Notes: generated by a model not told the origin, from the sequence alone. DNA of 64,000 nt from Elusimicrobiota bacterium (GCA_051745145.1 JBNJDT010000005.1:1096-65095), one strand, 5' to 3'; numbered from the stretch's first letter, positions 15,591 to 53,713 are shown. Numbers and translations: made by a program.

Positions 15591-16233
15591 TGATTTTTTC
15601 TTCTCTAAAGCCTTTTTCTCTTATCTTACAACTGGGACATTTACCGCATGCAGATCCGTCTGGAAGCGGATTGTAGCAAGATGAAGTTAAATCCAGATTA
15701 ATTCCCAGTTGTTTGCCTTTAGATATAATCTTAGATTTTTTCATATTAAGAAGCGGAGCTTTTATTTTTATATTCGTAGAATCTCGTGTAGCTAAGTTAG
15801 CAGTTTGCTCGAAATTTTGTAAGAAATCTCTGCGACAATCCGGATAGCCGGAAAAATCTCTTACGTTGGCGCCTATAAAAATAGAATAGGCCTCTTCAAT
15901 TTCTGCCAGACTGACGGCTACGGATAAAAAAATGAGATTTCTTCCGGGCACGTAAGTAGAGGGAATCCCCGTAGTCTCTTCCTCTGGTATTTTCCAGTCA
16001 GTAGTTAAAGCGGAACCGCCGAATTTACTTAGATTTATTTTAAGTATTTTGTGTTTTTTGACATTTTGAGACCGGACTATTTGTTTAGCTGCTTTTATCT
16101 CGTAACTACTGCGTTGACCGTAATCTATGGTTAAGGCCATAACAGAGAAGCCATTTTTTTGAGCTATACCAAGACATACGGCAGAATCCAGCCCGCCGCT
16201 TAAAAGTACTATGCATTTTTTAGTATTATTCAT
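15580..16233 (-). CDS. queC: 7-cyano-7-deazaguanine synthase
   Basis: PP-loop LLSGGLDSAV and the C-terminal Zn-binding cysteine cluster (SSCYN...DGSACGKCPSC). Confidence 0.9.
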   Translation of the reverse strand: MNNTKKCIVLLSGGLDSAVCLGIAQKNGFSVMALTIDYGQRSSYEIKAAKQIVRSQNVKKHKILKINLSKFGGSALTTDWKIPEEETTGIPSTYVPGRNLIFLSVAVSLAEIEEAYSIFIGANVRDFSGYPDCRRDFLQNFEQTANLATRDSTNIKIKAPLLNMKKSKIISKGKQLGINLDLTSSCYNPLPDGSACGKCPSCKIREKGFREEKINEQ

Positions 16234-16853
16234 TTTAACTTGTAAATTCTGTGTATATTCGGTTGTATCCGACCTTGCTGAAAGTATTTTTTTAAAAGCC
16301 GGAGTAACTTCCGAAATCCTATGCCTTCTTTTACCGGAGAAAATAGAAATTCACCGACTTGAATATCTTTTATGTTTTTTATAAAGTCAACAGCCCAGAA
16401 AAAATCTTCTTTATTCTTAATTACAAATTTAATTTCATCTTTCTGTTTCAAAAAATTTAAATTTAATAAATTGTTTTTATCAGTCTCTTTAGAAGAAGGA
16501 GTTTTTAAATCCATCACTATTTTAACTTTTTCCGGGATATATTTTATTAACTTAGAACCGTTAGTTTCAAGAACTACGCGGTATTTTGCTTGTATTAAAT
16601 CTTTTAGTAATTCCAGACAGTTTTCCTGCAAAAGAGGTTCACCACCGGTTATTACTACCAGCGAGCAATTAAACTCATTAATTTTTTTTAAAATTTTACT
16701 GCGGGACATATTTTTTCCACCAGATCGGGCATAAGAAGTATCACACCACGTACAATTTAAATTACACCCACTTAACCTTACAAATACAGCGGGCTTACCC
16801 ACTAATGAAGTTTCTCCCTGGACAGAGTAAAATATTTCACTTATATTTAGCAC
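16230..16853 (-). CDS. queE: 7-carboxy-7-deazaguanine synthase (radical SAM)
   Basis: CNLNCTWCDT cluster-binding motif close to the N-terminus, 207 aa. Sits between queD and queC. Confidence 0.85.
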   Translation of the reverse strand: MLNISEIFYSVQGETSLVGKPAVFVRLSGCNLNCTWCDTSYARSGGKNMSRSKILKKINEFNCSLVVITGGEPLLQENCLELLKDLIQAKYRVVLETNGSKLIKYIPEKVKIVMDLKTPSSKETDKNNLLNLNFLKQKDEIKFVIKNKEDFFWAVDFIKNIKDIQVGEFLFSPVKEGIGFRKLLRLLKKYFQQGRIQPNIHRIYKLK

Positions 16854-38499: not shown

Positions 38500-39925
38500 C
38501 ATACAAAAACATTTATATCTTATTTTAGTTTTATTATTTTTAGTTTCACCTTTAAATTTAGTTTTTGCCCAGGACGACGGTTTAATGGATAGGGCAATTA
38601 AGAATTATCTGGGAGGGGATTACCAGGGAGCCATCCAGGGCTTTGAACGAATTCTTGAAAATGAAGATAATCCCGAGGCCCGCCGCCTGCTTTTTAAGTC
38701 GATAGTTGAAGAGGGAAAGAATAATTTTGAGAATGAAAACTTTGAAAAGGCAAAAGAATATTTTCTGCGGGCTGAAGAATTATATCCCGATGATGAAGAG
38801 GTCAAAAATTATTTAGAAGAATTAGAAGAGGGAGAAGATAAAGAACCGGAAGAAAAACAGGAGTCATCCGGTTCCCCGGCCGATTCCAATCTGGAGGAAT
38901 TAATTGTAGAATTGAGAAACCAGATCTCCCGGGAAAGAGCGGCAAAGAATAGGTATAGGAATACAATTAATACTCTTTCCACTCAAAAAAATAGTTTGGA
39001 AGAATCTTTAAATACAACAAAAGAGAAACTTGCCCAGACCGAATCGCAACTAAAATCTATGGCGGAAAATCTTGAAGAAGACGATATGGCTCTAGGCTGG
39101 ATAGGTTATGGAATCGGGGGGGTAGCCTTAATTATCGGGGTAGTTCTTATAATAATACTCAGGAAAGTCTATTTTACATCTAATGAGAGTATTTATCAGC
39201 TTGACGAGCTTGAAGATCGCATCTTAGGCCGGCTCGAAGAGGCCGAAGAGGAATCCGAAGAACTTGAAGAAAGAGTTTCCAGAAGTATAAACCAGATGGT
39301 TAAGGGACAACAAGAAGCTGTAAAACAGATTTCCCATTCTGCGGCAGGTAAGACCCAGGAGGATATAGAACAGATAAAAAATGAATTAGAAAATCAATTT
39401 TCCAGGCAGCAGGAAAAGCTGCTTGAGCTTCTCAATATGCAGGCCAGAGCCCTATCCTCTGAACAGACAGAAAAGGTGGAACTTAAAAGCGGGAGGGTAA
39501 TAACTGATGTAAATCCTCATGTAAGGGCCAGAGCGGATGGAGTGGAGATGATCCCCAAGACCGTAAGTGATCCCAATGTCGCCCAGAAAATGCTGAAACC
39601 GTATTTGTCGGATTCCAATAATCGGGTAAGAGCTAATGCCTGTGTAGCTATACATCAATACAATCCCGAGCTGGCTGTAGAGACTTTAGAAAAGATGGCC
39701 GACAGTCCCAATAAATGGATGAGACTTTCAGCCGCCTGGGCTTTAGGAGAAATAGCAACTCCCAAGGTTACCCATATATTAAGGAAACTGCTTGATGATG
39801 TGGATGATAGGGTTAAAGAAAAAGCCATGGAAGCATTTGAGAATATGGCGGAGGTCAAACAGGAGGCCGGTTCTGAAATAAGAAAAATGATAGATCGTAT
39901 TCAGAAAGAACAGGAAGAAGAATGA
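38492..39925 (+). CDS. Hypothetical envelope protein: signal peptide, TPR, coiled coil, one TM, and C-terminal HEAT-like repeats
   Basis: Signal peptide, a TPR-like N-terminus, a coiled coil, a TM segment (WIGYGIGGVALIIGVVLIIIL), and C-terminal HEAT/PBS-lyase-like repeats (VRANACVAI..., MRLSAAWALGEI..., DRVKEKAMEAF). Confidence 0.5.
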   Translation: MNSIQKHLYLILVLLFLVSPLNLVFAQDDGLMDRAIKNYLGGDYQGAIQGFERILENEDNPEARRLLFKSIVEEGKNNFENENFEKAKEYFLRAEELYPDDEEVKNYLEELEEGEDKEPEEKQESSGSPADSNLEELIVELRNQISRERAAKNRYRNTINTLSTQKNSLEESLNTTKEKLAQTESQLKSMAENLEEDDMALGWIGYGIGGVALIIGVVLIIILRKVYFTSNESIYQLDELEDRILGRLEEAEEESEELEERVSRSINQMVKGQQEAVKQISHSAAGKTQEDIEQIKNELENQFSRQQEKLLELLNMQARALSSEQTEKVELKSGRVITDVNPHVRARADGVEMIPKTVSDPNVAQKMLKPYLSDSNNRVRANACVAIHQYNPELAVETLEKMADSPNKWMRLSAAWALGEIATPKVTHILRKLLDDVDDRVKEKAMEAFENMAEVKQEAGSEIRKMIDRIQKEQEEE

Positions 39926-40824
39926 AAAAAGTTGACCTCCATTTACATTCTACTCTATCGGACGGGAAACTCACTCCGGTAGAATTAATAAAACAGGCAA
40001 AAAAGAAAAATCTCAAGGCAGTCGCTATTACCGATCACGATATAACCGAAGGGATAGAATCGGCAATTAGATACGGAGCCAAGACCGGTATAGAAGTAAT
40101 ACCCGGAATTGAACTGTCCTGCGAATATAAATCCACTGAAGTTCATTTACTGGGATATTTTATAAACTGGGAAAATAGATGGTTTCAGAGCAAATTAAAA
40201 GTTCTGCAAAAGGCCAGGGAAAGAAGGGCCTATCATATATTAAATAAGCTTCAGAATATAGGGGTAAATATTGATGAGCAGATGCTGTTTGCCCAGGCGG
40301 GGAGCGGGGCCATTGGAAGAATGCACTTTGCCCGCTGTCTGGTAAAGATAGGGGAGGTGAAAACCGTAAGAGAAGCATTCAGAGAATATCTGGGAAAGAA
40401 TTGCCCGGCCTTTGTAAGAAAATTGCGTTTAACTCCTGTCGAAGCTCTTAATATGATTCACCGGGTGGCGGGCATCTCCGTATTGGCCCACCCTTCCTTT
40501 GGCGTCAGTCACAAAAATTTTATTCGCCGTCTGGCCCGGCTGGGGCTTTCGGGAATAGAAATTTATCATCCCCACGTATCGGAGGAAGAACAGAAAAAAT
40601 TTAAAGCAACAGCTTATGAATTGGGGTTATTTGTCACTGGAGGTTCTGATTCTCACGGAATGAGACCGGAAGAAAATCCGGTAGGTAGTATGGAAGTAGA
40701 ATACAGTGCAGTTGAAAATATGAAAAAAGCTTTGCAAAAGGTTGAGTTAAAAAATCGTATTATATTAAATTTGCAGAGCCAAAAATCAACTTTTAAAACC
40801 CGGGAGGTGAAAAAGAGTGTTTAA
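39922..40824 (+). CDS. PHP-family phosphoesterase (TrpH/YciV-like)
   Basis: HLHSTLSDG, AITDHD and GGSDSHG metal-binding motifs. 300 aa. Confidence 0.8.
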   Translation: MKKVDLHLHSTLSDGKLTPVELIKQAKKKNLKAVAITDHDITEGIESAIRYGAKTGIEVIPGIELSCEYKSTEVHLLGYFINWENRWFQSKLKVLQKARERRAYHILNKLQNIGVNIDEQMLFAQAGSGAIGRMHFARCLVKIGEVKTVREAFREYLGKNCPAFVRKLRLTPVEALNMIHRVAGISVLAHPSFGVSHKNFIRRLARLGLSGIEIYHPHVSEEEQKKFKATAYELGLFVTGGSDSHGMRPEENPVGSMEVEYSAVENMKKALQKVELKNRIILNLQSQKSTFKTREVKKSV

Positions 40825-41385
40825 AGTAAAAGAATGCATGATAAAAGAGGTAATGACCGCCAAAAGAGGAACTCCTCTCAATGAGATAATAAAGTTTTTT
40901 AAGGAAAAGCACGTTCATGTTTTGCCGGTAGTAGACAAAGAAGACCGGCTTGTGGGAGCGGTCTCTTTAAATGAAATTACAACTGTATTCGAACCTCATT
41001 CCGCCAAGATGAATAAACTTATGGAGGGAATACCTTTTGTCGATTCAGTTGAAGATAATGAACTCGATCTTGATTATATTACTCCGGAGATGGGTATTCT
41101 TGTAATAGCGGATGAAATAAAGACGGATAGATATCTGTCGGTTCGGCCCGATGATTCAATTTCTAAGGCCTATTCGGTTATGAAGAAAAATAAGACAAAA
41201 TTTTTGATGGTCACCGATGAGCAGGGCCGCTTAAAGGGAGTGCTGGGCATGTTTGATATAGTGTATTTTCTGTTTAAAAATAAAGGTGTTATTCAGTGAC
41301 ACTAAATGTCCTGTTCTCTATAGGAATAATATTTTTAACCGGGGTAATCGGGGCTACTTTAATAAAATATTTAAAATTGCCAAAT
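40815..41385 (+). repeat. Upstream copy of a ~570-bp near-identical direct repeat (Shine-Dalgarno + whole CBS gene + first ~27 codons of the antiporter)
   Basis: Matches 42882..43452 with a single mismatch (GACACTAAAT vs GACTCTAAAT). Identity breaks down after AATAAAATA. Confidence 0.85.
40817..41299 (+). CDS. CBS-domain pair protein (copy 1)
   Basis: Two CBS motifs, 160 aa. GTG start with a GGGAGG Shine-Dalgarno. Overlaps the downstream antiporter. Confidence 0.8.
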   Translation: MFKVKECMIKEVMTAKRGTPLNEIIKFFKEKHVHVLPVVDKEDRLVGAVSLNEITTVFEPHSAKMNKLMEGIPFVDSVEDNELDLDYITPEMGILVIADEIKTDRYLSVRPDDSISKAYSVMKKNKTKFLMVTDEQGRLKGVLGMFDIVYFLFKNKGVIQ

Positions 41386-42483
41386 ATTACTTCTTATATT
41401 TTTGTGGGTATTCTGATAGGGCCTGAATTGTTGGATTTAATATCTCCGGCTCTTATGAATTCCACTAAGTTTGTTACCAATGTGGCTTTAAGTTTCATAG
41501 CTTTCGGACTGGGCCAAAATTTTTCAATTAAAAAACTGCAATCTATAGGGAGTAATATAGTTGTCTTAACTATTGGTCAGATGGTAGTTACATTTTTATT
41601 GGTAGGGGGAAGTTTATATATGTTGCCGGATATTTCCTTTCATATGGCTATTCTGGCGGGAGCTATAGCTACCGCCTCGGCTCCAATAGCGGTGATAACA
41701 ATAATAAGAGAATACCGTTCTAAAGGGAATTTTACGGACAACTTATTGGGAGTGGTTGCCTTCGCCGACGGAGGGTCAATTATATTGTTTGCCGTAATTT
41801 TGGCAGTGGCCCGGGGGATAACTCAAACGGGCGGCAGTCTGGGGAGTTTGGTGGTTTCCGGCTTTATGGAAGCTCTGGTAGAAATTGGTGGTGCGATTTT
41901 AGTGGGAGTTATTATAGGAGCCATATTTTCTAAAACTCCCAAGTACGTGGATGATTCAATTGATATATTATTGTATATTCTCGGTTTTGTTCTGCTTACT
42001 TCCGGGGTAGCCTTACATTTTGGTTTTTCGGCACTTCTGGCAAATATGACTTTGGGGATATATCTAGAAAATAGAGGGGAATCAGAGTTTAGATTTTTTG
42101 ATGCGTTAAAAGATTTGGAAACTCCGTTCTATCTTTTATTCTTTGTACTGGCCGGTGCTAAACTGGAACTGGAAATGCTTAAATATTTACCGGCTGCGGC
42201 AACTGTATATATTATTACCCGGATTGGGGGGAAGGTGTTTGGGTCCTATCTGGGAGCAGTAGTGGCATCTGCAAAGAAAGAAGTAAAAAAATATTTGGGG
42301 ATGGCTCTTATTCCCCAGGCCGGTGTGGCTATAGGTTTTGCTCTTATTGTTCAGTCTGTATTTCAAAATACAGGAGGAGAAAAGATATTTTTATTAATAA
42401 TTTCCACTACGGTTGTAAATGAAATAATAGGGCCAGTATTTACTAAAATAGCTCTTCAAAAATCCGGAGAAATTAGAAGTTGA
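41296..42483 (+). CDS. CPA2-family cation/H+ antiporter (copy 1)
   Basis: About 12 TM segments with the Na+/H+-exchanger-family fold. GTG start. Confidence 0.85.
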   Translation: MTLNVLFSIGIIFLTGVIGATLIKYLKLPNITSYIFVGILIGPELLDLISPALMNSTKFVTNVALSFIAFGLGQNFSIKKLQSIGSNIVVLTIGQMVVTFLLVGGSLYMLPDISFHMAILAGAIATASAPIAVITIIREYRSKGNFTDNLLGVVAFADGGSIILFAVILAVARGITQTGGSLGSLVVSGFMEALVEIGGAILVGVIIGAIFSKTPKYVDDSIDILLYILGFVLLTSGVALHFGFSALLANMTLGIYLENRGESEFRFFDALKDLETPFYLLFFVLAGAKLELEMLKYLPAAATVYIITRIGGKVFGSYLGAVVASAKKEVKKYLGMALIPQAGVAIGFALIVQSVFQNTGGEKIFLLIISTTVVNEIIGPVFTKIALQKSGEIRS

Positions 42484-42628
42484 TTTTTTGAATAGCTGTT
42501 ATAATTTTATATAATACTATAAAATATAAGGAATTGAATTTTTGCTCAATTCAAAAGCAGCAGGTGCCGCTGAAAAAGTTAGAGTAACTATCCCTTATAT
42601 ATATAAATTTTGAGGTAATAAAAGTTTA

Positions 42629-42660
42629 GCCCGCTTGAAAAAAAATCAAGCGGTTTTTTT
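42629..42660 (+). terminator. Rho-independent terminator after antiporter copy 1
   Basis: GCCCGCTTGA-AAAAAAA-TCAAGCGG hairpin followed by a T7 run. Confidence 0.7.
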
Positions 42661-42664
42661 ACGG

Positions 42665-42693
42665 TTGACAGGTTTTGGAAAAACAATCATATT
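42665..42693 (+). promoter_or_regulatory. Candidate promoter for CBS/antiporter copy 2
   Basis: TTGACA, a 17-nt spacer, then CATATT. Lies immediately after the terminator and ~190 nt upstream of the copy-2 start. Confidence 0.3.
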
Positions 42694-42881
42694 CTGTAGT
42701 TATTTTAGGTAAAAAGGGATAAATATAAAATTTTTATTTAGAGGATTCAAAATTCTGCTTAGAACTTTAAAAACAAATTTAGTAAAGTGTAATACAGGGT
42801 GAAAATATAAAGTTAATTTTATGAAAGCCTAATTTGATAAATCCATAAATTAGGAAACGCATTAGCCGGGAGGCAAAATTA

Positions 42882-43452
42882 GAGTGTTTAAAGTAAAAGA
42901 ATGCATGATAAAAGAGGTAATGACCGCCAAAAGAGGAACTCCTCTCAATGAGATAATAAAGTTTTTTAAGGAAAAGCACGTTCATGTTTTGCCGGTAGTA
43001 GACAAAGAAGACCGGCTTGTGGGAGCGGTCTCTTTAAATGAAATTACAACTGTATTCGAACCTCATTCCGCCAAGATGAATAAACTTATGGAGGGAATAC
43101 CTTTTGTCGATTCAGTTGAAGATAATGAACTCGATCTTGATTATATTACTCCGGAGATGGGTATTCTTGTAATAGCGGATGAAATAAAGACGGATAGATA
43201 TCTGTCGGTTCGGCCCGATGATTCAATTTCTAAGGCCTATTCGGTTATGAAGAAAAATAAGACAAAATTTTTGATGGTCACCGATGAGCAGGGCCGCTTA
43301 AAGGGAGTGCTGGGCATGTTTGATATAGTGTATTTTCTGTTTAAAAATAAAGGTGTTATTCAGTGACTCTAAATGTCCTGTTCTCTATAGGAATAATATT
43401 TTTAACCGGGGTAATCGGGGCTACTTTAATAAAATACCTCAAGATGCCCAAT
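42882..43452 (+). repeat. Downstream copy of the ~570-bp near-identical direct repeat
   Basis: See 40815..41385. Confidence 0.85.
42884..43366 (+). CDS. CBS-domain pair protein (copy 2; 100% amino-acid identity to copy 1)
   Basis: The 160-aa translation is identical to that of 40817..41299. Confidence 0.8.
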   Translation: MFKVKECMIKEVMTAKRGTPLNEIIKFFKEKHVHVLPVVDKEDRLVGAVSLNEITTVFEPHSAKMNKLMEGIPFVDSVEDNELDLDYITPEMGILVIADEIKTDRYLSVRPDDSISKAYSVMKKNKTKFLMVTDEQGRLKGVLGMFDIVYFLFKNKGVIQ

Positions 43453-44550
43453 ATAACCTCTTATCTTCTGGTGGGTATATTAATCGGTCCCGAAATTTTT
43501 AATCTTATTCCCGGTGAGCTTTTGAATTCGGCCCACTTGTTTACAAATATAGCTTTGAGTTTTATAGCTTTTGATTTAGGACAGAACTTCACCCTTAAAA
43601 AATTGAGGAATATTGGCCGGGAAGTAGCCTGGATTACAGTGGCTCAGATTATTTTTTCATTTCTTCTGGTGGGGTTGGGTATGTATTTTATAGTAGGAAC
43701 GGAAATGCATATTGCCATATTACTGGGAGCGATAGCTACGGCAACTGCCCCGATAGCTGTTATAATGGTAATAAGGGAGTATAAAGCCAGGGGGAATTTT
43801 ACCGATACACTGCTGGGGGTAGTGGCTCTAGATGATGGCGGTGGGATAATAATGTTTGCTGTTTTTCTGGCAGTGGCCCGGGGTATGACTATGGTCGGGG
43901 AAACTCTGGGAACTTTGATAACTACCGGTTTTATTGAAGCTTCTGTTGAGATAGGCGGAGCGGTATTACTGGGAATTATTTTAGGAGTATTGTTTGCTAA
44001 TTTCCCTAAATTTATCGACAGTTCTATAAGTATACTTATATATATACTGGGATTTGTTTTAATTAACACCGGGATATCACAGCATTTTGGTTTTTCTGTA
44101 CTGCTTGCCAATATGTCTATGGGGATATATTTGGCCAATCAGTCGGGAACTGAATACAGATTTTTTGAAACTTTAAATGAGATAGAGCCACCTTTTTATT
44201 TGTTGTTTTTTGTTCTGGCCGGTGCTGAACTTCAGTTTGGGATGCTTAAACATCTTCCTCTGGCAGCGGGAGTATATTTTATTACCCGTTTTACGGGAAA
44301 AATACTCGGCTCCTATCTGGGAGCAGTAGCGGTGTCGGCGAGAGATGAAGTAAAAAAATACCTGGGAATGGCTCTAGCTCCTCAGGCCGGTGTGGCCATA
44401 GGTTTTGCACTGATAGTGAAGAGTACTTTTAAAGGGATAGGTGGAGAAGAAGTGTTTTTTATAATAATTGCCACTACAATTTTAAATGAAATTTTCGGCC
44501 CGGTATTTACAAAAATAGCTCTTCAAAAGTCCGGAGAAACTAAAGTTTAA
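43363..44550 (+). CDS. CPA2-family cation/H+ antiporter (copy 2; diverged paralog, ~65% identical to copy 1)
   Basis: The first 27 aa match copy 1 (one substitution). The remainder is diverged throughout but clearly homologous. Confidence 0.85.
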   Translation: MTLNVLFSIGIIFLTGVIGATLIKYLKMPNITSYLLVGILIGPEIFNLIPGELLNSAHLFTNIALSFIAFDLGQNFTLKKLRNIGREVAWITVAQIIFSFLLVGLGMYFIVGTEMHIAILLGAIATATAPIAVIMVIREYKARGNFTDTLLGVVALDDGGGIIMFAVFLAVARGMTMVGETLGTLITTGFIEASVEIGGAVLLGIILGVLFANFPKFIDSSISILIYILGFVLINTGISQHFGFSVLLANMSMGIYLANQSGTEYRFFETLNEIEPPFYLLFFVLAGAELQFGMLKHLPLAAGVYFITRFTGKILGSYLGAVAVSARDEVKKYLGMALAPQAGVAIGFALIVKSTFKGIGGEEVFFIIIATTILNEIFGPVFTKIALQKSGETKV

Positions 44551-44596
44551 TTCTTGAATACCGGTTTAGAATTTGATATAAGGAAATCATAAGATA

Positions 44597-44700
44597 AAGG
44601 CAGACAGGGGAAGTCCTGTGAAAGTCAGGCGCTGCCCCGCAACTGTGAAAGTCAGAGTACCTGTTGCCTATATTTGGACTTCGAGGGAAGGACGGGCGAA
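44597..44700 (+). promoter_or_regulatory. Cobalamin (B12) riboswitch aptamer
   Basis: AGGGGAAGTCCTGTGAAAGTCAGGCGCTGCCCCGCAACTGTGAAAGTCAGAGTACCTGTTGCC, which carries the hallmark GCUGCCCC-GCAACUGU segment and a B12-box-like AGUCAGAGUACCUG. An enclosing GGCAGACAGG/CCTGTTGCC helix is present. Sits upstream of a btuFCD-btuB operon. Confidence 0.6.
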
Positions 44701-44733
44701 AACTTTTAAATATAAGTAAAGTTATAAGTCTAT

Positions 44734-44764
44734 CCCGCTTGAAGATAACAAAGCGGGTTTTTTT
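44734..44764 (+). terminator. Intrinsic terminator hairpin that probably serves as the riboswitch expression platform
   Basis: CCCGCTT-GAAGATAACA-AAGCGGG followed by a T7 run that ends directly at the btuF ATG. Confidence 0.6.
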
Positions 44765-45619
44765 ATGTTTGACAAATTAAAGAAAGTTATTTTAACCATA
44801 TTAATTTTTATATTATCCGGGTGTAGTTTTTCGGATGGTTCAAAGAGCAAGCCGGGAGAAACTTACCTTTCTCTATCCCCGGCTACGACGGAGATTATAT
44901 ATGCTTTGGGGGCTCAGAAAAATCTGGTGGGAGTAACCGATTTTTGCAATTATCCGGCGGAAGCTAAGGAGAAAGAATCAGTGGGAAATTTTATGAATCC
45001 TTCCTTAGAAAAGATTTTTTCCCTCAACCCGGATATAGTATTTGATGCCGGTCTGCCTCAAAAAAAACTTATAGACAAATTAAAGAAAAGAGGCATAAAA
45101 GTTATTACTGTCGAGCCGGAAAACATTGAACAGTTAAAAGAGAGTATTAAACGTATTGGTAAAATAACAAAAAGAAAAGATAAGAGTAGGAAAGTAATTT
45201 CAAAAATCCACTGGCAGCTAAAAGAAGTTACCCAAAAAGCAGCAAATGTTAACAGAAAAAAGGTTTATGTAGAAATATCGGCAAATCCGATGATGACTGC
45301 GGGGAGAAAAAGTTTTATAACTGAACTTATCGATATAGCCGGAGGAATAAATGTCGCCGGGGATGTAGCAAAGAATTATTTTACTGCCGGCTTTGAATTT
45401 CTAGTAGAAAAACAGCCGGATGTTATATTACTGCTTTCTCAAAATCCAGATAAGAGAAAAAAAGAGCTGGAACGAATTTTAGATAATAAAGGCCGTCATT
45501 CCAAAAAACCAGAAATATTTCCTGTCTCAGTTGAAGAAAAAGATCTATTTTTAAGGCCGGGACCCCGGATCGGCCGGGGAGCGCGGAGAATGTTTGAGCT
45601 GATTCACCGTGAACAGTAA
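44765..45619 (+). CDS. btuF: Periplasmic cobalamin-binding lipoprotein of a B12 ABC importer (BtuF-like)
   Basis: Lipoprotein signal peptide with lipobox (ILSGC). TroA/BtuF-like N-terminus LSLSPATTEIIYALGAQKNLVGVTDFCNYP. Confidence 0.75.
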   Translation: MFDKLKKVILTILIFILSGCSFSDGSKSKPGETYLSLSPATTEIIYALGAQKNLVGVTDFCNYPAEAKEKESVGNFMNPSLEKIFSLNPDIVFDAGLPQKKLIDKLKKRGIKVITVEPENIEQLKESIKRIGKITKRKDKSRKVISKIHWQLKEVTQKAANVNRKKVYVEISANPMMTAGRKSFITELIDIAGGINVAGDVAKNYFTAGFEFLVEKQPDVILLLSQNPDKRKKELERILDNKGRHSKKPEIFPVSVEEKDLFLRPGPRIGRGARRMFELIHREQ

Positions 45620-45688
45620 ATTTTTCGGTCTGCCGGTGGTAAGTATTAAGGTAATGATACCGATAGAAATTTTCACGGGAACCGTTTA

Positions 45689-46618
45689 ATGAAAAGACAT
45701 TTATTATTTTTTAGCTTATTTACCGCCGGTGCTGTAATAATAGCTTTAAATCTGGGCAGCTCCGGAGTAACTTTATTTAACATGACCGGCAGTAACGTAA
45801 TTCTCAATTTGAGAATTCCCCGTATAATTATGGGGCTGGTGGTGGGGTCGGGGCTTTCCGTGGCCGGAGTGATACTGCAGGCACTGCTTAAAAATCCTCT
45901 TGCCGAACCTTATATTGTGGGAACTTCCTCGGGAGCGGCTCTGGGAGCAGCAATAGTATCTTTTATGGGGATAGCATATTTTCGGGCTCCGGCGGCTTTG
46001 GCGGCCGGACTTATTACTACTTTTACAGTATACAGTATAGCAAAGAAAACGGGGCGGCCAGGTCCCAATACTATAATCTTAGCCGGGGTTATTGTGGGCT
46101 CTTTTTTATCGGCAGTCACTCTTATGTTTATGGTTTTAGATCAGAAAACCGCTTACGATATACTGTTTTTCCTTACCGGAAATCTCAGTTTTGAGAGTAC
46201 GGGACGCATCCTGTTTACGTCTGTTTTAATGTTGTCCGGTATAGGGATAGCTTTTTTTTACGGGACCAGACTGGATATTCTATCACTTGAAGATACCGAA
46301 TCCGTAATGCTGGGAGTGGAAGTTGAAAAGGACCGCCGGAATTTATTTATAGTGGCAAATATAATTGTAGCTGTCTCGGTATATGCAAGCGGGATAATAG
46401 GGTTTGTGGGACTCATAGTACCCCATACCGTAAGACTTATGACGGGAACAAAACACAGAAAACTCATATTGAATTCTGCGGTGGCCGGAGCCGGTTTTCT
46501 TGTGCTTTGCGACGGTTTGGCCCGGTCAGTTATTGCTCCCGTGGAGTTACCGGTCGGGGTAATTACCGCGTTTACCGGCGGCCCATTTTTTCTGTATCTT
46601 ATGGTAAGTAAAAGATGA
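45689..46618 (+). CDS. btuC: FecCD-family permease (BtuC-like)
   Basis: 309-aa polytopic protein of the FecCD/BtuC family (RIPRIIMGLVVGSGLSVAGVILQ). Confidence 0.85.
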   Translation: MKRHLLFFSLFTAGAVIIALNLGSSGVTLFNMTGSNVILNLRIPRIIMGLVVGSGLSVAGVILQALLKNPLAEPYIVGTSSGAALGAAIVSFMGIAYFRAPAALAAGLITTFTVYSIAKKTGRPGPNTIILAGVIVGSFLSAVTLMFMVLDQKTAYDILFFLTGNLSFESTGRILFTSVLMLSGIGIAFFYGTRLDILSLEDTESVMLGVEVEKDRRNLFIVANIIVAVSVYASGIIGFVGLIVPHTVRLMTGTKHRKLILNSAVAGAGFLVLCDGLARSVIAPVELPVGVITAFTGGPFFLYLMVSKR

Positions 46619-47376
46619 GTGTTATAAAACTGAAAAATGTTAGTGCCGGTTATAAACAGGGGTTTAAAATGAAAAATTTAAATCTTAAAATGGAAAAAGA
46701 GAATTTTACCGGGATTATCGGCCCCAACGGCAGCGGGAAAACAACCCTTCTGAAAATTATTACCGGTATATTAAAAAATGAAACCGGACAGGTAAAAGTA
46801 GACGGACGCAATATAAAAAACTTAAAACCAAAACAGAAGAGCCGGATAATGGCCTATGTTCCTTCCGAGAGCCTGATTAATTTTAATTATACGGTTCTTG
46901 ATATTGTTATTTTTGGACGGTATCCTTACACGGGGCGGCTGGACAGGTATAAAAAAACCGATAAGAAAAAAGCATTTCGGGCCCTGGAAATCTGCGGCGT
47001 AGCCAGTTTGACTACAAGATTGTTTAATACTTTATCTTCCGGTGAAAAGAAAAAAGTGTTACTGGCCCGGGCTCTGTGCCAAAAAACGGATATTTTATTG
47101 CTGGATGAACCGGCGGCCCATCTGGATATCCATCATGTGAAAGAAATATTTAATTTACTTACTGAACTGTCTGAGAACGGAATAAAGATTATAGCTGTAA
47201 TTCACGATATAAATTTAGCCTCCGTTTACTGCGATGATGTTATAGTATTAAAGCAGGGAGAAATAAAGTATAAAGGGGAAAAAAAAGCTGTAGTAAATAG
47301 TGATTTTTTAAGTAATATTTACGGGGGAGAAGTAGAAGTTAAGAATATTGAAGGAAATAGTTTTATTATCCCTTAA
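46615..47376 (+). CDS. btuD: ABC ATPase (BtuD/FecE-like)
   Basis: GPNGSGKTT, LSSGEKKKVLLARAL, LLLDEPAAHLD, AVIHDIN: all catalytic motifs canonical. Confidence 0.85.
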   Translation: MSVIKLKNVSAGYKQGFKMKNLNLKMEKENFTGIIGPNGSGKTTLLKIITGILKNETGQVKVDGRNIKNLKPKQKSRIMAYVPSESLINFNYTVLDIVIFGRYPYTGRLDRYKKTDKKKAFRALEICGVASLTTRLFNTLSSGEKKKVLLARALCQKTDILLLDEPAAHLDIHHVKEIFNLLTELSENGIKIIAVIHDINLASVYCDDVIVLKQGEIKYKGEKKAVVNSDFLSNIYGGEVEVKNIEGNSFIIP

Positions 47377-47394
47377 AAAAGAAAGGAGAAACAA

Positions 47395-49353
47395 TTGAAA
47401 AAAATTTTATTTTTTATATTAGTTATCGGTATAGTATTAGTTAAGACGGCTCCGGGGGCCGAATATATAGGAGATATGGGGACCATGGTGGTAACTCCGA
47501 TAGGAAGCAAAATTAATTCCGCCTATATCCCCGCCAATATAGAAGTAATAGACCGGGACCGGATCAGTAGTTCGGGTAATGAATCCGTGGCCGATGTTTT
47601 AAGAGATGTAAACGGACTGCGGGTTAGCGACTGGACCGGAAACGGCACTAAAATGTCGGTGGATATAAGCGGTTTTGGGGAGACAGCCAGCCAGAATGTA
47701 CTGATTCTGGTGGATGGCATGAGATTGGACAGCAATGATTTAAGCGGGACAGACTGGCAGCAGGTGACTGCGGATCAGATTGAAAGGGTAGAAATAATAA
47801 AGGGGCCGGGCACCGTAATATACGGTGACAACGCTTCCGGTGGAGTAATAAATATTATTACAGAATCCCGGATTCCCCGGACAAAAAAAATGGTTGAGAT
47901 GTGGGCCACTTCTTATAACGGACTGGGGGGAAAGGCGAAACTCTCTGGAAGTCAAAACAGTTTTAGTTATTCTTTAGCTGGGTCCGGATCAGAAAATCCG
48001 GGTTACCGCCAGAACAGCGAGATAGGAGTAAGAAGCGTATCCGGTGATTTTGGGTATCAGATTGCCGGTCTGCCTTTAAAACTGGATATTAACTCCGGCT
48101 ATAAAAAAATCAGTTACGGCTTGCCGGGAAGTCTGTCGGAGTCGGAACTTGAATCGGGTATCAATAGATATGATTCCACTACCCCGGAAGATAAAGAAGA
48201 AGATAAAAATAGTTATGTTCGTGGTAAATTATCTTTCAGACCGGTAAAAAATTTAAATATTGAACTAAACTCTACCTATAAGACAAAAAAGTCTACAACT
48301 GTGTGGGTATCTATGGGTAGTTCCACCGAATACAAAAATTATAGAAACATTATGGGACTTAAGATAATTAAAAATAAACTTCCCATGGCCCCGGCTGCAA
48401 GAATAACAGCCGGGTTTGACTATGACCGTAATAAAATGAATACTGAAAAAATAGGATTCACTAATTCTATAAGTACTATTCAGGTTGTTTCTGTGGCACC
48501 TTATATACATACGGAAATTCCCGCATCGGAGAAATTAATTTTTTCCGGCGGAATAAGATATCACAATTCCGGTTATAATTTTGCCCACCGGACAGGGGGA
48601 GTAACTACAGAGGAAGAATATGAAAGAGAGGCATTGGCTTATTCAGCGGGGTTAAGTTATCTTTACCGAAAGATGGCTAAAACGTATATAAATTACAGTC
48701 AGAATTTCAGGTTTCCCAAAACCGGAGAATTTTTCAGTATATTTTCAGGTGAGCTTAATGAAGACCTTAAAGCCCAGAAAAGTGATGATATAACTGCCGG
48801 TTTGCGGATATTTCCCTTCTCTGATTTTACCGCGGGACTTCATTACCGGCATTCTTACATTGAGGATGAATTATTTTACAATCCCGAAACGGGGGCTAAT
48901 GAAAATATAGAAGAGACATTTCGGAGAATATATGAGTTGAAATTGAGCTATAAATTAGGGGACCGGCTTTCTTTAAGTGGCGGAATAAATCACCTGGTTA
49001 CCGAAATTAAAAGCGGTGAATATTCCGGGAATAAAATTCCGGGAGTTCCCCATAATAAATTTAATTTTTCCGCTAAAGGACAGCCTGTGGATAATTTAAC
49101 TTTACGGGCAAGTATAACCGGTACAGATGATAGATATTTTATAAGTGATTTTAAAAATGAAGCATCTAAACTTCCGGGATATGTCCGGACTGATCTTACG
49201 GCAGTTTATTCTTTAAGTCCCATGAGTATATCCCTGGGGATTAATAATTTGTTTAATGAAAAATATTCCGAACACGGAACTTATTATGGAGAAAAAAATT
49301 ATTATCCGTCCCCGGTAAGGAATTACACTCTTGAAGTTGGAATAACATACTAA
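47395..49353 (+). CDS. btuB: TonB-dependent outer-membrane receptor (BtuB-like)
   Basis: Signal peptide, TonB-box-like TMVVTP, plug domain (IEVIDRDRI, GLRVSDWTG) and a C-terminal barrel ending …EVGITY. Shares the riboswitch-controlled operon. Confidence 0.8.
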   Translation: MKKILFFILVIGIVLVKTAPGAEYIGDMGTMVVTPIGSKINSAYIPANIEVIDRDRISSSGNESVADVLRDVNGLRVSDWTGNGTKMSVDISGFGETASQNVLILVDGMRLDSNDLSGTDWQQVTADQIERVEIIKGPGTVIYGDNASGGVINIITESRIPRTKKMVEMWATSYNGLGGKAKLSGSQNSFSYSLAGSGSENPGYRQNSEIGVRSVSGDFGYQIAGLPLKLDINSGYKKISYGLPGSLSESELESGINRYDSTTPEDKEEDKNSYVRGKLSFRPVKNLNIELNSTYKTKKSTTVWVSMGSSTEYKNYRNIMGLKIIKNKLPMAPAARITAGFDYDRNKMNTEKIGFTNSISTIQVVSVAPYIHTEIPASEKLIFSGGIRYHNSGYNFAHRTGGVTTEEEYEREALAYSAGLSYLYRKMAKTYINYSQNFRFPKTGEFFSIFSGELNEDLKAQKSDDITAGLRIFPFSDFTAGLHYRHSYIEDELFYNPETGANENIEETFRRIYELKLSYKLGDRLSLSGGINHLVTEIKSGEYSGNKIPGVPHNKFNFSAKGQPVDNLTLRASITGTDDRYFISDFKNEASKLPGYVRTDLTAVYSLSPMSISLGINNLFNEKYSEHGTYYGEKNYYPSPVRNYTLEVGITY

Positions 49354-49549: not shown

Positions 49550-49627
49550 GGGGTGGTAGTTCAGATTGGTAAGAACGCCGGCCTGTCAAGCCGGAGGCCG
49601 CGAGTTCAAGTCTCGTCCACCCCGCCA
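49550..49627 (+). tRNA. tRNA-Asp (anticodon GUC), CCA encoded
   Basis: Acceptor GGGGTGG/CCACCCC, D-arm GTTCAGATTGGTAAGAAC, anticodon stem-loop CCGGC-CTGTCAA-GCCGG, T-arm GCGAG-TTCAAGT-CTCGT, then G-CCA. Confidence 0.85.
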
Positions 49628-49678
49628 TTATTATTAGTAAAAAAGATTTACACTAATTATATAGCGAACTACCCATTA

Positions 49679-52600
49679 ATGAATAAAGAAAAAAAAGAAA
49701 CAAAAAATTACAAAGTTGTCCTGGAAGCCCGTAAAGATGCTCGTAAAAGATTACTGGATGCCCTTGACGAATTTGACCCCCAGGAGGATTCTGAAAGAAT
49801 AGAAAAAGTAAAACAGACCCTAGTCCAGATAAACAAAGAGATAAAAGAACTTCAGAAAAAAACAAGTAATTCGGAGCAAAATACCTCAAAATCCGGTCCC
49901 CGGGCCGACCAGCCTAGTCCTTCCGACCAAGAAGAAGAGAAAGAAAAAGAGGAAACTGAAAAATCAGAGAAGAGCATTGAAGAGATAGATAATTCCCGGA
50001 AAACTCTTCAGTCTGAAGTCAAGGATTTGAAAAACGATATATCCAGTGAAAGAGATAAATGGGAAGAAAAATTATCAGCTAAACAAAGAGAGATAAATGC
50101 TCTTAAATCAAAGATGAATCTCCGCCAGGCCAAGCTCCGGGCCCAGTATCAGTTGAAGAAGCAGAATCTGGAGAGGACCCGTTCGGAATATGAAAAAAAA
50201 TTAAAGCAGGAAAGAGAGAAAGACACCTCTTTTGATCAGGAACGACAGCGATGGTCCAAACGTCTGGAAGAAAAGCAGCGAATTATAGATAAATTAAAAA
50301 TTGAAATTTCTTCAATGGAAAATAGATATCATCAGGATATTGAAGAAATCAGGGATGAGTACAGCCGTGAAAAAGAAGCCCTTCAGGAGAGAGTTAAAAA
50401 CCTCCAAAACCAGAAAAATCGGGAGACTGAACAGCTGCGGTCCAGATTATCTGAAAAACAACGCGCTATTATAAATTTAGAACAGGAACTGGATACAAAA
50501 GAAGCAGATTATGAAAGGGCCCGCCATAATCATTTAAAAGAGATTGAATCTTTAAAAGAAGATTTTAGCAGTGAAAAAGAGAGCATAAGAGAGGAAAAAG
50601 AGTCAAGTATAGATGAGTTAAAGAATGAGATTTCTTTTAAGGAAAAAGAGATCCGTAATTTAAAACAGGAAATTTCTGTAATTGAAGAAAAGAGAAAAAT
50701 AGCCCGGGAGGAATTTGAAGATCAATTAGAAAAATTAAGGCAGTCACAGAACGAAGAGACAAAAAAATTAGATAAAAAAATAGAGAATAAGAATAATTTA
50801 ATACAGCAGTTAAAAGATGAAATAGCGGATATAAAAAGAGACCATTCTATTAAGTTAAATAATTTAAATAATAAAAATGAACAGAAAAAAAATGAACTTA
50901 AACAAAAAATCCGGGACCGGGAAGAAAAAATAGAAAAAGTACGCGAAAAATTTTCTACCCAAAAAACGGAGCATGAGAAAAAAGTAATAAATCTAGAAAA
51001 TGTAATTGATAAAAAAGTTGAGCAGTTAGGTAATGTAACCGATAAAAAAGATAAAGAAATTCAGAATTACAAAGCCCGCCTGGAAGAGATAAAAGAAAAA
51101 TTTTTCGGAATGCAGAGAGAATACGAAAAAATTAAGACTGAAAAAGAAAAGGAAAAAGAAAAATTTGAATCTCAAATAGAAAGTTTAAAAGAAAATGCGG
51201 TTTTGGAAAAGGAAAATCTGCTTGAAAAAATAACTCAAAAAGAAGATAAAATTGGCCAGCTTAATAACGAACTGGAAACCGCCGACCAGCAGCGGGAAGA
51301 TTTGCAAAATAAATATAAAAGAAAACAGGCTAACTTAAAAGAAAGCCTGGCTGATAGAGAAAAAGAGATTGAAAGAATAGCCTCGAAAAAAGAGGAACAG
51401 AAAAAAGAATATCAGGATTATTTAGCGGACTTAAAGGAAAAGTTAGCCGAAGAAAAGAGAAAAACAGATGATTTAAAAAGGGAAAAGAGACAGGTAAAAG
51501 AAGAATTATCGTCAAAAATAAAAAACTTAAACAGTACTAAAGAACTGGAAAAGAAAAATCTCCGGGAAAAAATTAAAAGTAAAAACCGAAAGATAATTGA
51601 AATTGACAATGAATTGGAAAAGGCAAAAGACAGTAATAAAAATTTACAAAAAGATTGGAACCGGGAAAGGGAGAACTTAAAACAGGATTTTAACCAGAAA
51701 CTCACTGAGAAAGATAAACGTATTGAAGAACTTTCAGAATTAGTAGATAGTTTTGAAAATAAATTTAATGTAGAAAAGACAAAGAGAAAAGAAGAAAATA
51801 AAAACTGGGCCAGTAAAACCGGAAATCTGCAGCAAAAGATAAATGAACTCAATGACAATTTAAATACAGCTCAAAATAAGATAGAGCAGTTAGAGCAGAA
51901 AAAAGAGCAGCAGGCTGATCAATTTGAATCCCAAAGAGAAAATTGGGAAAGCAGCATGGAAACTATTAGATCCCGTCTTCACGAAACAGAGGTCGAGTAT
52001 TCGACTAAAGTAGAGGGTCTAAAAGAGAAAATAAACGGACTTAATAAAGAACGGGTCCAGATAACCGACAAATATAACAGCCGGGTTCAGGAACTTGAAA
52101 AACAGTTAAATAATCGGGATAATGATATAGCTCTACTTAAGCAGGAGCACAATCGGGAAAAAGAGAATATCCTTAAAAACTTAAGAAAAGCTGATGAGAG
52201 GTATGAAAAAATAAAAGAAGAATTTTATGCTTCTCGCGATAAAATAAAAGAGATGGCAGGTTCTAATGAAAAGTTAAAAGAACAGCTTGAAGATACTCAA
52301 GCTAAACTGGAAGAGATTAAAACAGAGAAAGATAATACAATCCAGAAATTAAAAGAAGAGCTTGAAGAACAAGAATATAAAGATGAACTTTTACAGAAAA
52401 GGTATAATAAGTTAAAAGCAGATTTTAAGAACAAAGAAGAAAGTTACAGTAAAACAATAAATAAATTAAAAAATAAATTAACTAAAAAAACCTGGGAGGT
52501 AAATAAAGTGCGTGAGGAATTAGAGAGTTTACTTGATGAATTTGAGGAAAGAGTAACAACCCAGCGAAGGATCTGGGAAGAGAAATTAAAAAATAAAGAA

Positions 52601-53713
52601 GAACAGTTAAAATCCATAAAAGAAGAAGCTCAAAATACAAAAGCCAGTTTGGAAGAAAGAATTAATGAATTAAAAGATTCTAATTGGAAACTCCAGGTGC
52701 AGATTGAAGAAGACAGGAAAGCCTGGCGGGAAGATTATGAACAGAAAGAGCAGGAATACCGGAAGCTCAAAAAAGCAAAGGAAGAAAAAGAGCAGCAGCT
52801 TCGCGAAAAGTTAGCTGAAAAGGAGAGTAGCTGGGTAAACCAGAAAAGTGAACTTCAAAAAAAGATAAATCATTTAGAAGGGAAATTGGAAAGTAAAATT
52901 CCGGCTAAGGATGAACAGATAGATAGATTAAAAGAAGAGCTTGCTCAAACTAAAGCCACTCTTGAGAAAAAAGAAAACTATTATGATGAAAAGATAAATA
53001 CCATTAAAGAAGAGATGGATGATAAGCTTTCTCAAATGAATGAAACCTTAAAAGTACTTGAAGAAAAGAATATTGATTTACGTTCTAAAATTTCTGATAG
53101 AGAATCCAAACTTAAAACTCAAAAAAGTGAGTTTGAGAATGAAATTAAGATACTAAAAGACAAGTTTGAAACAAATATTAGTAAATTACAGGCGGAATTA
53201 GCCCGCCAGCAAAAAGAGAATAAAGAGCTCAAAGAATTACTGGATAAAAAAGAGAGAAAACTCCAAAGCGAGGAGGAAATCAAAAAAGAAGAAGTGGGGC
53301 AGATAAGAACCCGGTTAGAAAAAAATATTGAAGATTTCCGTATGAAGATGAAGGAGATAGAGGATAACAATAAACCTTCCGAATACGAAATCGAAGAGTA
53401 TTTAGAAGAGGTAGAAGCTGAAGAAAGGGATGAGGAAAATTCTACCTCAAAAGATCCTGAACCGGAAGAAGATGAAGAAGAATTAGAGGAAGAATTGTCT
53501 GTAAAACAGCAAATTCAAAATAAAAAAAACGAATTAAAAGAATTAAAAAAGAAGACCAAGAAAAAAATAAAGAAAAAGGAAAAAGAGTTTAAAAAAGCAA
53601 CCAGTAAAAAAGAAAAAGATAAGATCAAAGAAGAATTAATAGAACTTGAACAAAAAAGTAGGCAGCGGGAAAAAGCAATTAAAGAAAAGTTGTCGAAATT
53701 AAAGAAGAAATAG
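49679..53713 (+). CDS. Giant coiled-coil protein 1 (1344 aa), E/K/R/L/Q-rich, with no recognizable enzymatic domain
   Basis: Begins MNKEKKETKNYK (the ORF-track start at 49553 runs through the tRNA and is spurious). After a short Pro/Ser-containing N-terminal patch it is almost free of Gly/Pro/Cys. Heptad-like charged sequence with recurring W-x-E-K/R-L motifs. Poly-K C-terminus. Confidence 0.7.
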   Translation: MNKEKKETKNYKVVLEARKDARKRLLDALDEFDPQEDSERIEKVKQTLVQINKEIKELQKKTSNSEQNTSKSGPRADQPSPSDQEEEKEKEETEKSEKSIEEIDNSRKTLQSEVKDLKNDISSERDKWEEKLSAKQREINALKSKMNLRQAKLRAQYQLKKQNLERTRSEYEKKLKQEREKDTSFDQERQRWSKRLEEKQRIIDKLKIEISSMENRYHQDIEEIRDEYSREKEALQERVKNLQNQKNRETEQLRSRLSEKQRAIINLEQELDTKEADYERARHNHLKEIESLKEDFSSEKESIREEKESSIDELKNEISFKEKEIRNLKQEISVIEEKRKIAREEFEDQLEKLRQSQNEETKKLDKKIENKNNLIQQLKDEIADIKRDHSIKLNNLNNKNEQKKNELKQKIRDREEKIEKVREKFSTQKTEHEKKVINLENVIDKKVEQLGNVTDKKDKEIQNYKARLEEIKEKFFGMQREYEKIKTEKEKEKEKFESQIESLKENAVLEKENLLEKITQKEDKIGQLNNELETADQQREDLQNKYKRKQANLKESLADREKEIERIASKKEEQKKEYQDYLADLKEKLAEEKRKTDDLKREKRQVKEELSSKIKNLNSTKELEKKNLREKIKSKNRKIIEIDNELEKAKDSNKNLQKDWNRERENLKQDFNQKLTEKDKRIEELSELVDSFENKFNVEKTKRKEENKNWASKTGNLQQKINELNDNLNTAQNKIEQLEQKKEQQADQFESQRENWESSMETIRSRLHETEVEYSTKVEGLKEKINGLNKERVQITDKYNSRVQELEKQLNNRDNDIALLKQEHNREKENILKNLRKADERYEKIKEEFYASRDKIKEMAGSNEKLKEQLEDTQAKLEEIKTEKDNTIQKLKEELEEQEYKDELLQKRYNKLKADFKNKEESYSKTINKLKNKLTKKTWEVNKVREELESLLDEFEERVTTQRRIWEEKLKNKEEQLKSIKEEAQNTKASLEERINELKDSNWKLQVQIEEDRKAWREDYEQKEQEYRKLKKAKEEKEQQLREKLAEKESSWVNQKSELQKKINHLEGKLESKIPAKDEQIDRLKEELAQTKATLEKKENYYDEKINTIKEEMDDKLSQMNETLKVLEEKNIDLRSKISDRESKLKTQKSEFENEIKILKDKFETNISKLQAELARQQKENKELKELLDKKERKLQSEEEIKKEEVGQIRTRLEKNIEDFRMKMKEIEDNNKPSEYEIEEYLEEVEAEERDEENSTSKDPEPEEDEEELEEELSVKQQIQNKKNELKELKKKTKKKIKKKEKEFKKATSKKEKDKIKEELIELEQKSRQREKAIKEKLSKLKKK

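Follow-up and report, generated by a model that had tools for sequence, protein, structure and literature searches.

We find that the segment at 42484-42662 of the 64,000-nt Elusimicrobiota stretch analysed here (the window) is very probably a pseudo-riboswitch, a non-functional paralogous copy of a complete btuF leader that now carries a fixed terminator. The segment is homologous to that leader, has lost features of the aptamer as well as the bistability in silico, and carries substitutions that look neutral. In the course of events that we propose, a CBS+antiporter unit would have been tandemly repeated together with the leader downstream of it, leaving the upstream leader copy in front of a second CBS gene and not in front of the B12 operon. 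Without a regulatory target, the sensor of the relic would have been eroded by AT-biased mutation: the GGGG/CCCC junction helix would have lost its 5′ strand to a deletion, the GCUGCCCCGCAAC core would have been scrambled, and the L5 loop and its partner in the platform altered, and a 33-nt deletion would have removed the antiterminator, so that the RNA would fold to the terminator state with or without ligand. In its present role the relic would terminate the PHP-CBS1-c1 transcript constitutively, as an intrinsic terminator, and insulate the second unit, with its surviving promoter-like hexamers yielding at most a dead-end transcript of ~140 nt, and the repeat as a whole would have a mosaic history shaped by gene conversion or recombination. 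An earlier note on this DNA had proposed such a degenerate paralogous leader copy, orphaned inside a tandem CBS+antiporter repeat, and our analysis bears out that central claim.

The locus, which comes from a metagenome-assembled genome (MAG), encodes in order a HEAT-repeat protein, a PHP-domain protein, a CBS-domain protein and an antiporter (c1), followed by non-coding DNA, a second CBS copy and antiporter (c2), further non-coding DNA and a B12 uptake operon (Table 1). The stop codon of c1 is TGA (42481-42483), and the non-coding DNA amounts to 400 nt between c1 and CBS copy 2, and to 214 nt between c2 and the BtuF gene. NCBI holds entries for both antiporters (MGM0441187 and MGM0441189); an exact look-up of the c2 protein sequence returned no entry on record.

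Table 1. Features of the duplicated antiporter locus and of its two leaders, with positions in the window.
Feature	Position	Strand	Basis
PHP-domain protein	39922-40824		
CBS-domain protein, copy 1	40817-41299		
Antiporter copy 1 (c1), Na_H_Exchanger family, 395 aa	41296-42483	+	ORF; Pfam PF00999, E=2.4e-37
Promoter-like site of the relic, TTGAAT-16-TATAAT	42488-42515	+	homologous to TTGAAT-17-TATAAG at 44554-44582
Dead AdoCbl-II aptamer-equivalent	42520-42597	+	20.8 bits on model R1; no Rfam cobalamin match
Hairpin GAATTGA-ATTTTTGC-TCAATTC	42531-42552	+	sequence; MFE fold of 42528-42625
Best-preserved block AAAAAGTTAGAGTAAC (functional GAAAGTCAGAGTACC); third hairpin and B12-box-like 3′ junction	42573-42588	+	local alignment
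Expression platform remnant, ACTTCGAGGGAAGG to ATTTTGAGGTAA	42606-42630	+	four-way alignment; constrained folding
Intrinsic terminator of the relic, CCGCTTGA-AAAAAAA-TCAAGCGG then T7	42631-42660	+	terminator scan
Possible btuF 5′-end relic, ATG to ACG at 42661-42663	42661-42715	+	alignment; weak similarity
Possible PHP 3′-end relic and GGGAGG ribosome-binding site before CBS copy 2	42780-42880	+	collinear with 40686-40756
Repeat unit 2: CBS (42884-43366) and antiporter copy 2, c2 (43363-44550)	42884-44550	+	
Promoter-like site of the functional leader, TTGAAT-17-TATAAG with TG extended -10	44554-44582	+	read from sequence
Functional AdoCbl-II cobalamin riboswitch aptamer	44591-44670	+	Rfam RF01689, 56.1 bits vs gathering threshold (GA) 36.5
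Expression platform of the functional riboswitch	44671-44764	+	folds and motif conservation
Antiterminator strand ACTTCGAGGG	44678-44687	+	part of the functional platform
Functional terminator CCCGCTT/AAGCGGG and T7, abutting btuF ATG at 44765	44734-44757	+	
Regulated operon: BtuF-like binding protein, FecCD permease, ABC ATPase, TonB-dependent receptor	44765-49353	+	Pfam PF01497, PF01032, PF00005, PF07715/PF00593

The B12 riboswitch that the note placed after c2 is genuine, although it belongs to RF01689 and not to RF00174, the family named there. Its RF01689 match is the sole riboswitch in the window at Rfam gathering thresholds, and it is accompanied by the appropriate genomic context on its 3′ side (genes for BtuF, FecCD, an ABC protein and a TonB receptor), a bistable platform, and conservation in relatives. 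The TTTGgTATAA motif of its promoter-like region is kept in two related loci, L008 and L005. In the functional leaders of the window, L008 and L005, the conserved antiterminator, CUUCGAGGG, pairs with the terminator's 5′ arm. The folds with and without the terminator differ there by a ddG of -3.2 kcal/mol in the window and of 0.0 and -1.8 kcal/mol in the other two leaders, a small difference (0 to -3.2 kcal/mol) of the kind expected of a switch. The U-tract of the terminator adjoins the btuF ATG in all three leaders (44758-44767 in the window, 11389-11400 in L005, and ~2146-2155 in L008), with no recognisable Shine-Dalgarno sequence between the two, and the terminator hairpin may for this reason also gate translation initiation. 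A more distant relative, L007, has an AdoCbl-II aptamer (7570-7650) that overlaps the called start of btuF (7644), and since it lacks a terminator like that of the window, its expression platform is probably translational.

The relic is collinear with the whole of the functional leader at 44551-44764, including promoter, aptamer, antiterminator and terminator, and sits within the CBS+antiporter repeat at an offset of 2067 nt. All four sequence blocks that the earlier note had quoted in support of this correspondence align as it described, and the terminators match in both copies, each with its T7 (hairpins at 42631-42653 and 44734-44757). Local alignment of 42484-42883 against 44551-44764 gives a score of 62, compared with 25.6±3.3 for 1000 dinucleotide-preserving shuffles (z=11, 0/1000). 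The similarity extends significantly beyond the terminator, with a z of 8.4 (0/1000) once both terminators are removed, and the aptamer-equivalent core alone still gives z~4 (1/1000). A permissive Rfam scan of 42440-42900 (E<=10) returned no match to the cobalamin clan or to any riboswitch class. Using a lineage-specific covariance model (R1) built from the four aptamers of the window, L008, L005 and L007, we obtained 103.8 bits for the functional aptamer (44590-44670) and 20.8 bits for the relic (42520-42597), the latter over a full-length alignment; across the 2.6 kb searched, the relic is the second-best match, and the next reaches 11.7 bits. As the note had anticipated for a search of this kind, then, the 44597-44700 region scores, and the upstream segment fails with Rfam, is marginal with the lineage model, and nowhere attains the score of a full aptamer. 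We also considered whether 42440-42900 could be another known RNA and rejected this, as Rfam gave sub-threshold noise alone (a PyrG leader and assorted sRNAs), far below gathering scores.

The anatomy of the relic, worked out from a four-way alignment with two orthologous functional leaders and pair-by-pair bookkeeping, shows where the aptamer has been damaged. A deletion has taken the 5′ strand of the 4-bp GGGG/CCCC junction helix and with it all four pairs, and the invariant core GCUGCCCCGCAAC of the functional aptamers reads GCAGCAGGUGCCGC in the relic; neither this core nor the GGGGAA junction of RF01689 is preserved, in agreement with the note, which had described the conserved B12-binding core of the first copy as deleted or mutated. 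Eight of the 22 modelled pairs are broken, and changes are found at 23 of the 56 positions that are invariant across the window, L008 and L005 aptamers. The L5 loop has gone from UGAAAGU to CUCAAUU and the conserved ACUUC of the platform to AUUUU, the putative kissing loop between their counterparts in the functional copy being predicted from sequence. In class II cobalamin riboswitches, a four-way junction contacts cobalamin and an L5-L13 kissing loop is needed for regulation (PMC5028336); both the four-way junction and L5 are damaged in the relic. The note was right that a GAATTGA/TCAATTC hairpin has formed here, and mistaken in supposing that it replaces the closing helix, as the hairpin lies where the inner junction strand and the first (L5) hairpin used to be, and 6 of the 8 positions of the outer closing helix still form pairs. 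Through CG>UA changes, 5 of the 7 pairs of the first hairpin persist, and those of the third are all kept (3 of 3); together with the AGUCAGAGUACC block, the third hairpin makes up the best-preserved parts of the relic (17/20 identical in the best-preserved block by local alignment). On the minus strand, the scrambled core GCAGCAGGTGCCGCTG (42556-42572) resembles a terminator hairpin with a T-run, which is probably fortuitous given that there is no minus-strand gene nearby.

The residual full-length match to the lineage model, and a closing helix, an L5-position hairpin and a third hairpin that are all still able to pair, are what one would also expect of a working but highly divergent aptamer, for cobalamin or another ligand, that escapes standard models and regulates the CBS2-antiporter-2 unit. 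We regard such an aptamer as extremely improbable, given that the junction helix has lost one of its strands and the invariant core is scrambled, that no riboswitch class in Rfam matches the segment, that CBS2 begins 220 nt past a strong terminator, and that the lack of an antiterminator alternative leaves no possibility of switching.

This last point emerges from the expression platform, which in the pseudo-riboswitch has been reduced to a remnant. The conserved ACUUCGAGGGAAGG now reads AUUUUGAGGUAA, and 33 nt matching ~44691-44723 are deleted, with which the antiterminator is lost; constrained folding found no antiterminator alternative in the relic. The terminator itself consists of an 8-bp GC-rich stem, a 7-nt loop and a U7 tract, with 4 of the 21 positions that are invariant in the functional leaders altered. 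It is favoured by a ddG of -10.7 kcal/mol, with a stem pair probability of 0.97, under constrained folding. From this energy difference, the missing antiterminator, and the damaged junction and L5, we read the relic as most likely a ligand-blind constitutive terminator for the PHP-CBS1-c1 transcript. It would accordingly be expected not to bind B12, and probably to terminate transcription in the cell. Where the note had the terminator alone retained, we find that most of the closing helix and the TTGAAT-16-TATAAT site survive too. The latter matches 10 of 12 positions and is the best sigma-70-like site in 42300-44900, and, judged from its hexamers, it may still be active as a promoter.

Is the decay of this leader neutral? 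The relic has changed at similar rates at invariant and variable positions of the aptamer (23/56, or 41%, vs 12/24, or 50%), which indicates that the former constraint on the aptamer is no longer visible. Its specific substitutions are AT-biased (21 GC>AT vs 10 AT>GC), with 39% of C and 50% of G retained as against ~80% of A and T, and its GC content of 0.27 is that of the adjacent spacer (0.26) rather than that of the functional leader (0.41). Among ungapped pairs, 14 of 18 are still canonical, compared with 10.3±2.1 in a simulation of neutral decay that drew on the empirical substitution spectrum (P=0.058). We did not accept structure-preserving selection on the relic on these grounds, the excess of pairs being weak and non-significant. 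The -35 and -10 hexamers are nearly unaltered; together with the pair excess, they may be taken as weak hints of residual constraint. An impression that the promoter flank is significantly better kept than the aptamer proved to depend on the alignment, with a Fisher p of 1.0 on the four-way alignment. Against shuffled sequences, the whole 141-nt transcript folds with a z of -2.5 and the aptamer-equivalent alone with a z of -0.5.

Such hints raise the question of whether the element could have been exapted, either as a selected constitutive sRNA of ~140 nt that runs from the promoter at 42488-42515 to 42660, or as an insulator or leader that separates the expression of the two CBS-antiporter units. 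Riboswitch-derived or riboswitch-controlled sRNAs do exist, for example SreA/SreB and Rli55/EutX, and the relic has the best promoter-like site of its region, with a consensus -10, along with a terminator that is better kept than the aptamer (4/21 vs 23/56 invariant positions altered), the surplus of retained pairs, and the favourable fold of the full transcript. If the element were under such selection, the weak pair excess would reflect selection on RNA structure and not chance. We nevertheless consider exaptation unlikely, since the over-conservation of the promoter flank varies with the alignment used and is not significant, the pair retention is non-significant and the aptamer-equivalent by itself folds no better than shuffled sequences, the composition has relaxed to spacer level, and the element has neither an orthologue that we could find nor a match to an Rfam family. 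The retention of the terminator is simply accounted for by the need to end the c1 transcript. As for orthologues, none was found in the assemblies searched, and the relic is known from one MAG; neither a relic-specific 24-mer nor the c1 protein had a match in metagenome scans, and a scan of contigs gave distant antiporters only, with identities of 44% or less.

The edges of the duplicated leader may themselves be flanked by remnants of the neighboring genes. On the 3′ side of the terminator, similarity to the btuF 5′ end is slight against btuF of the window (z=1.0) and somewhat higher against that of L008 (z=2.5, p~0.025), and at about 42780-42843 there is similarity to the PHP tails of both the window and L008 (z=2.6, p~0.02), which is suggestive of a mirror-image PHP relic at 42780-42880 that would mark the left edge of repeat unit 2. 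These candidate junction relics (PHP 3′ end, btuF 5′ end) lie in the expected places, with weak support (p~0.02 to 0.19). The next gene after the relic is CBS copy 2, 220 nt past the terminator, and the relic is thus not in the leader of a cobalamin gene. Just 3′ of the relic terminator lies TTGACA-17-CATATT (42665-42693), which ranks as one of the region's two top promoter-like sites and is a candidate promoter for CBS2-c2, ~190 nt 5′ of the CBS2 start; its -35 TTGACA seems to be derived from former btuF codons, ATGTTTGACAAA having become ACGGTTGACAGG.

The repeat is a mosaic. Positions 40814-41369 and 42881-43436 form a 556-bp direct repeat that is identical save for one base (41301). It spans the CBS gene in full, the two copies of which are 100% identical, and runs ~70 nt into the antiporter, after which an identity of ~68% sets in abruptly. 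It looks as if gene conversion had overwritten part of two old paralogues very recently, or an assembly effect may be at work; both antiporters would then share an identical CBS partner, and a direct repeat of this kind should promote deletion of c1, giving an arrangement like that of L008. The antiporters c1 and c2 are 66% identical in amino acids, with a dS of ~1.6 and an identity at 4-fold sites of 43%, which implies that synonymous sites are saturated; their dN/dS of ~0.16 indicates that both copies are under purifying selection. An outgroup-rooted neighbor-joining tree of the antiporters gives ((c1,L005),(c2,L008)), with 200/200 bootstrap support for each pair, and this grouping holds in every sub-region, including the 3′ end (c1+L005 in 191-200/200). 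Gene conversion of the c1 3′ end by c2 would have explained why the relic survived; at the protein level this idea was rejected, as c1 groups with L005 along its whole length. Another locus, P0122/L009, was set aside as a relative: it encodes a 47-aa member of the 90%-identity cluster of c2 on an unrelated 1.3-kb contig, and its membership is a clustering artefact. Two abutting antiporter genes after one CBS gene, ahead of the AdoCbl-II aptamer, are found in L007 (5134-7506), where they are distant paralogues in the tree.

Orthologous RF01689 matches are present in L005, L006 and L007, and a homologous, aligned leader in L008. L005 and L006 have a single PHP-CBS-antiporter-AdoCbl-II-btuF locus, with an antiporter 76% identical to c1 and 68% to c2, and L008 likewise has a single unit, with an antiporter 91% identical to c2 and 65% to c1 in amino acids. 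In all three, one CBS+antiporter unit leads directly into the intact leader and there is no relic; the extra leader thus goes with the arrangement of two units only. The tree and the identities suggest that c1 and c2 had already diverged as coding paralogues when the window lineage split from L005, or alternatively that c1 is a xenologue. At leader sites that separate the window and L008 from L005, the relic sides with the window and L008 by 21:7, and at those where the window and L008 differ, it splits 10:10. We rejected the idea that this affinity is an artefact of AT composition, for which ~14:14 would be expected (P=0.003). By rough arithmetic, using an F81-type correction of the identities, the relic branch comes to ~0.32 substitutions per site, and the 4-fold sites of c2 and L008 to ~0.40 per branch; these values are compatible with neutral decay that began at about the window/L008 divergence, which would also give a rough age for the relic. 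A relic as old as the split between c1 and c2 would be unrecognisable, which means that either the leader was copied or homogenised later, much as the CBS gene evidently has been in very recent times, or the body of c1 has a separate origin; later homogenisation or recombination of the leader appears to us the probable course. If the leader copy predates the split from L008, then L008 would have lost unit 1, presumably through recombination between the CBS direct repeats. The earlier note had called this a clear and datable example of decay. The repeat is instead a mosaic with three apparent ages, for the CBS genes, the antiporter bodies and the leader, and a single simple duplication can thus neither be read from it nor dated from the divergence of the antiporters.

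A further alternative is mis-assembly, with the tandem arrangement or at least the identical CBS tract joining two related populations, in which case the relic would not belong to a single genome in the form seen here. The window does come from a MAG, a near-perfect 556-bp tract with one mismatch is unusual beside an identity of ~68%, and single-copy relatives exist with either type of antiporter. A chimera of single-copy loci, however, would put an intact riboswitch after c1, as in L005, and would not explain the decayed leader, its 33-nt deletion, the ACG in place of the btuF start, or the 220-nt AT-rich spacer; further, neither the relic nor c1 has a counterpart in any other assembly searched, and the lone mismatch at 41301 fits gene conversion. 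We therefore hold an assembly error to be very unlikely.

A pseudo-riboswitch of this kind can be set against several known systems. The relic descends from the AdoCbl-II or AdoCbl-variant (class II) riboswitch RF01689, of which env8HyCbl is an example, and is collinear with the functional aptamer at 44591-44670. Like members of that family, it keeps the closing helix, two hairpin positions, and the AGUyAGAGUA block; unlike them, it falls below the family threshold of 36.5 bits and has no junction helix, invariant core, switchable platform, or cobalamin gene downstream. It is a descendant only, and is not to be annotated as a member of RF01689. The relic also resembles pseudogenes that arise by tandem duplication in being redundant, in its disabling deletions, in AT-biased changes that are blind to the former constraint, in its spacer-level composition, and in having candidate relics of the PHP 3′ end and of the btuF 5′ end as mirror images at the junction. 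It differs from these in that the decayed object is a cis-regulatory RNA and not a coding gene, and in that the repeat combines, as a mosaic, segments that differ in age and not one clean duplication. As in Rho-independent terminators, a GC-rich hairpin is followed by U7 and is predicted to form with high probability (P=0.97), yet in contrast to ordinary terminators, this one began as the OFF-state arm of a riboswitch and would have become constitutive once the antiterminator was lost. Finally, the relic resembles the SreA/SreB, Rli55 and EutX sRNAs in its layout, in which promoter, leader and terminator come without an ORF and a short terminated transcript could result. The aptamers of SreA/SreB, Rli55 and EutX are intact and ligand-responsive, whereas that of the relic is destroyed.

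We found no explicit description of riboswitch pseudogenes, remnants or vestigial riboswitches in the searchable literature. Decay of a riboswitch after duplication is nonetheless expected from first principles and is an ordinary by-product, seen here in one MAG. The relic is an example of the fate of a riboswitch once it is parted from its target genes, with sensor and antiterminator lost and the terminator kept and, as it appears, constitutive; it does not reveal a new mechanism, and is useful as a teaching or comparative case. It also advises caution in annotation, given that riboswitch-like matches below threshold can be relics, and the locus, which shows mosaic and concerted evolution in a tandem repeat, undermines naive dating from the divergence of paralogues.

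Beyond the B12 uptake operon, the window carries a tRNA (49550-49624) followed by a very large ORF (49553-53713, at least 1386 aa), the true start of which must lie further downstream, as the mechanically called start at 49553 overlaps the tRNA. L005 likewise has a tRNA (16201-16275) and then a large ORF from 16318 onwards, of at least 1687 aa and with no Pfam match on record.
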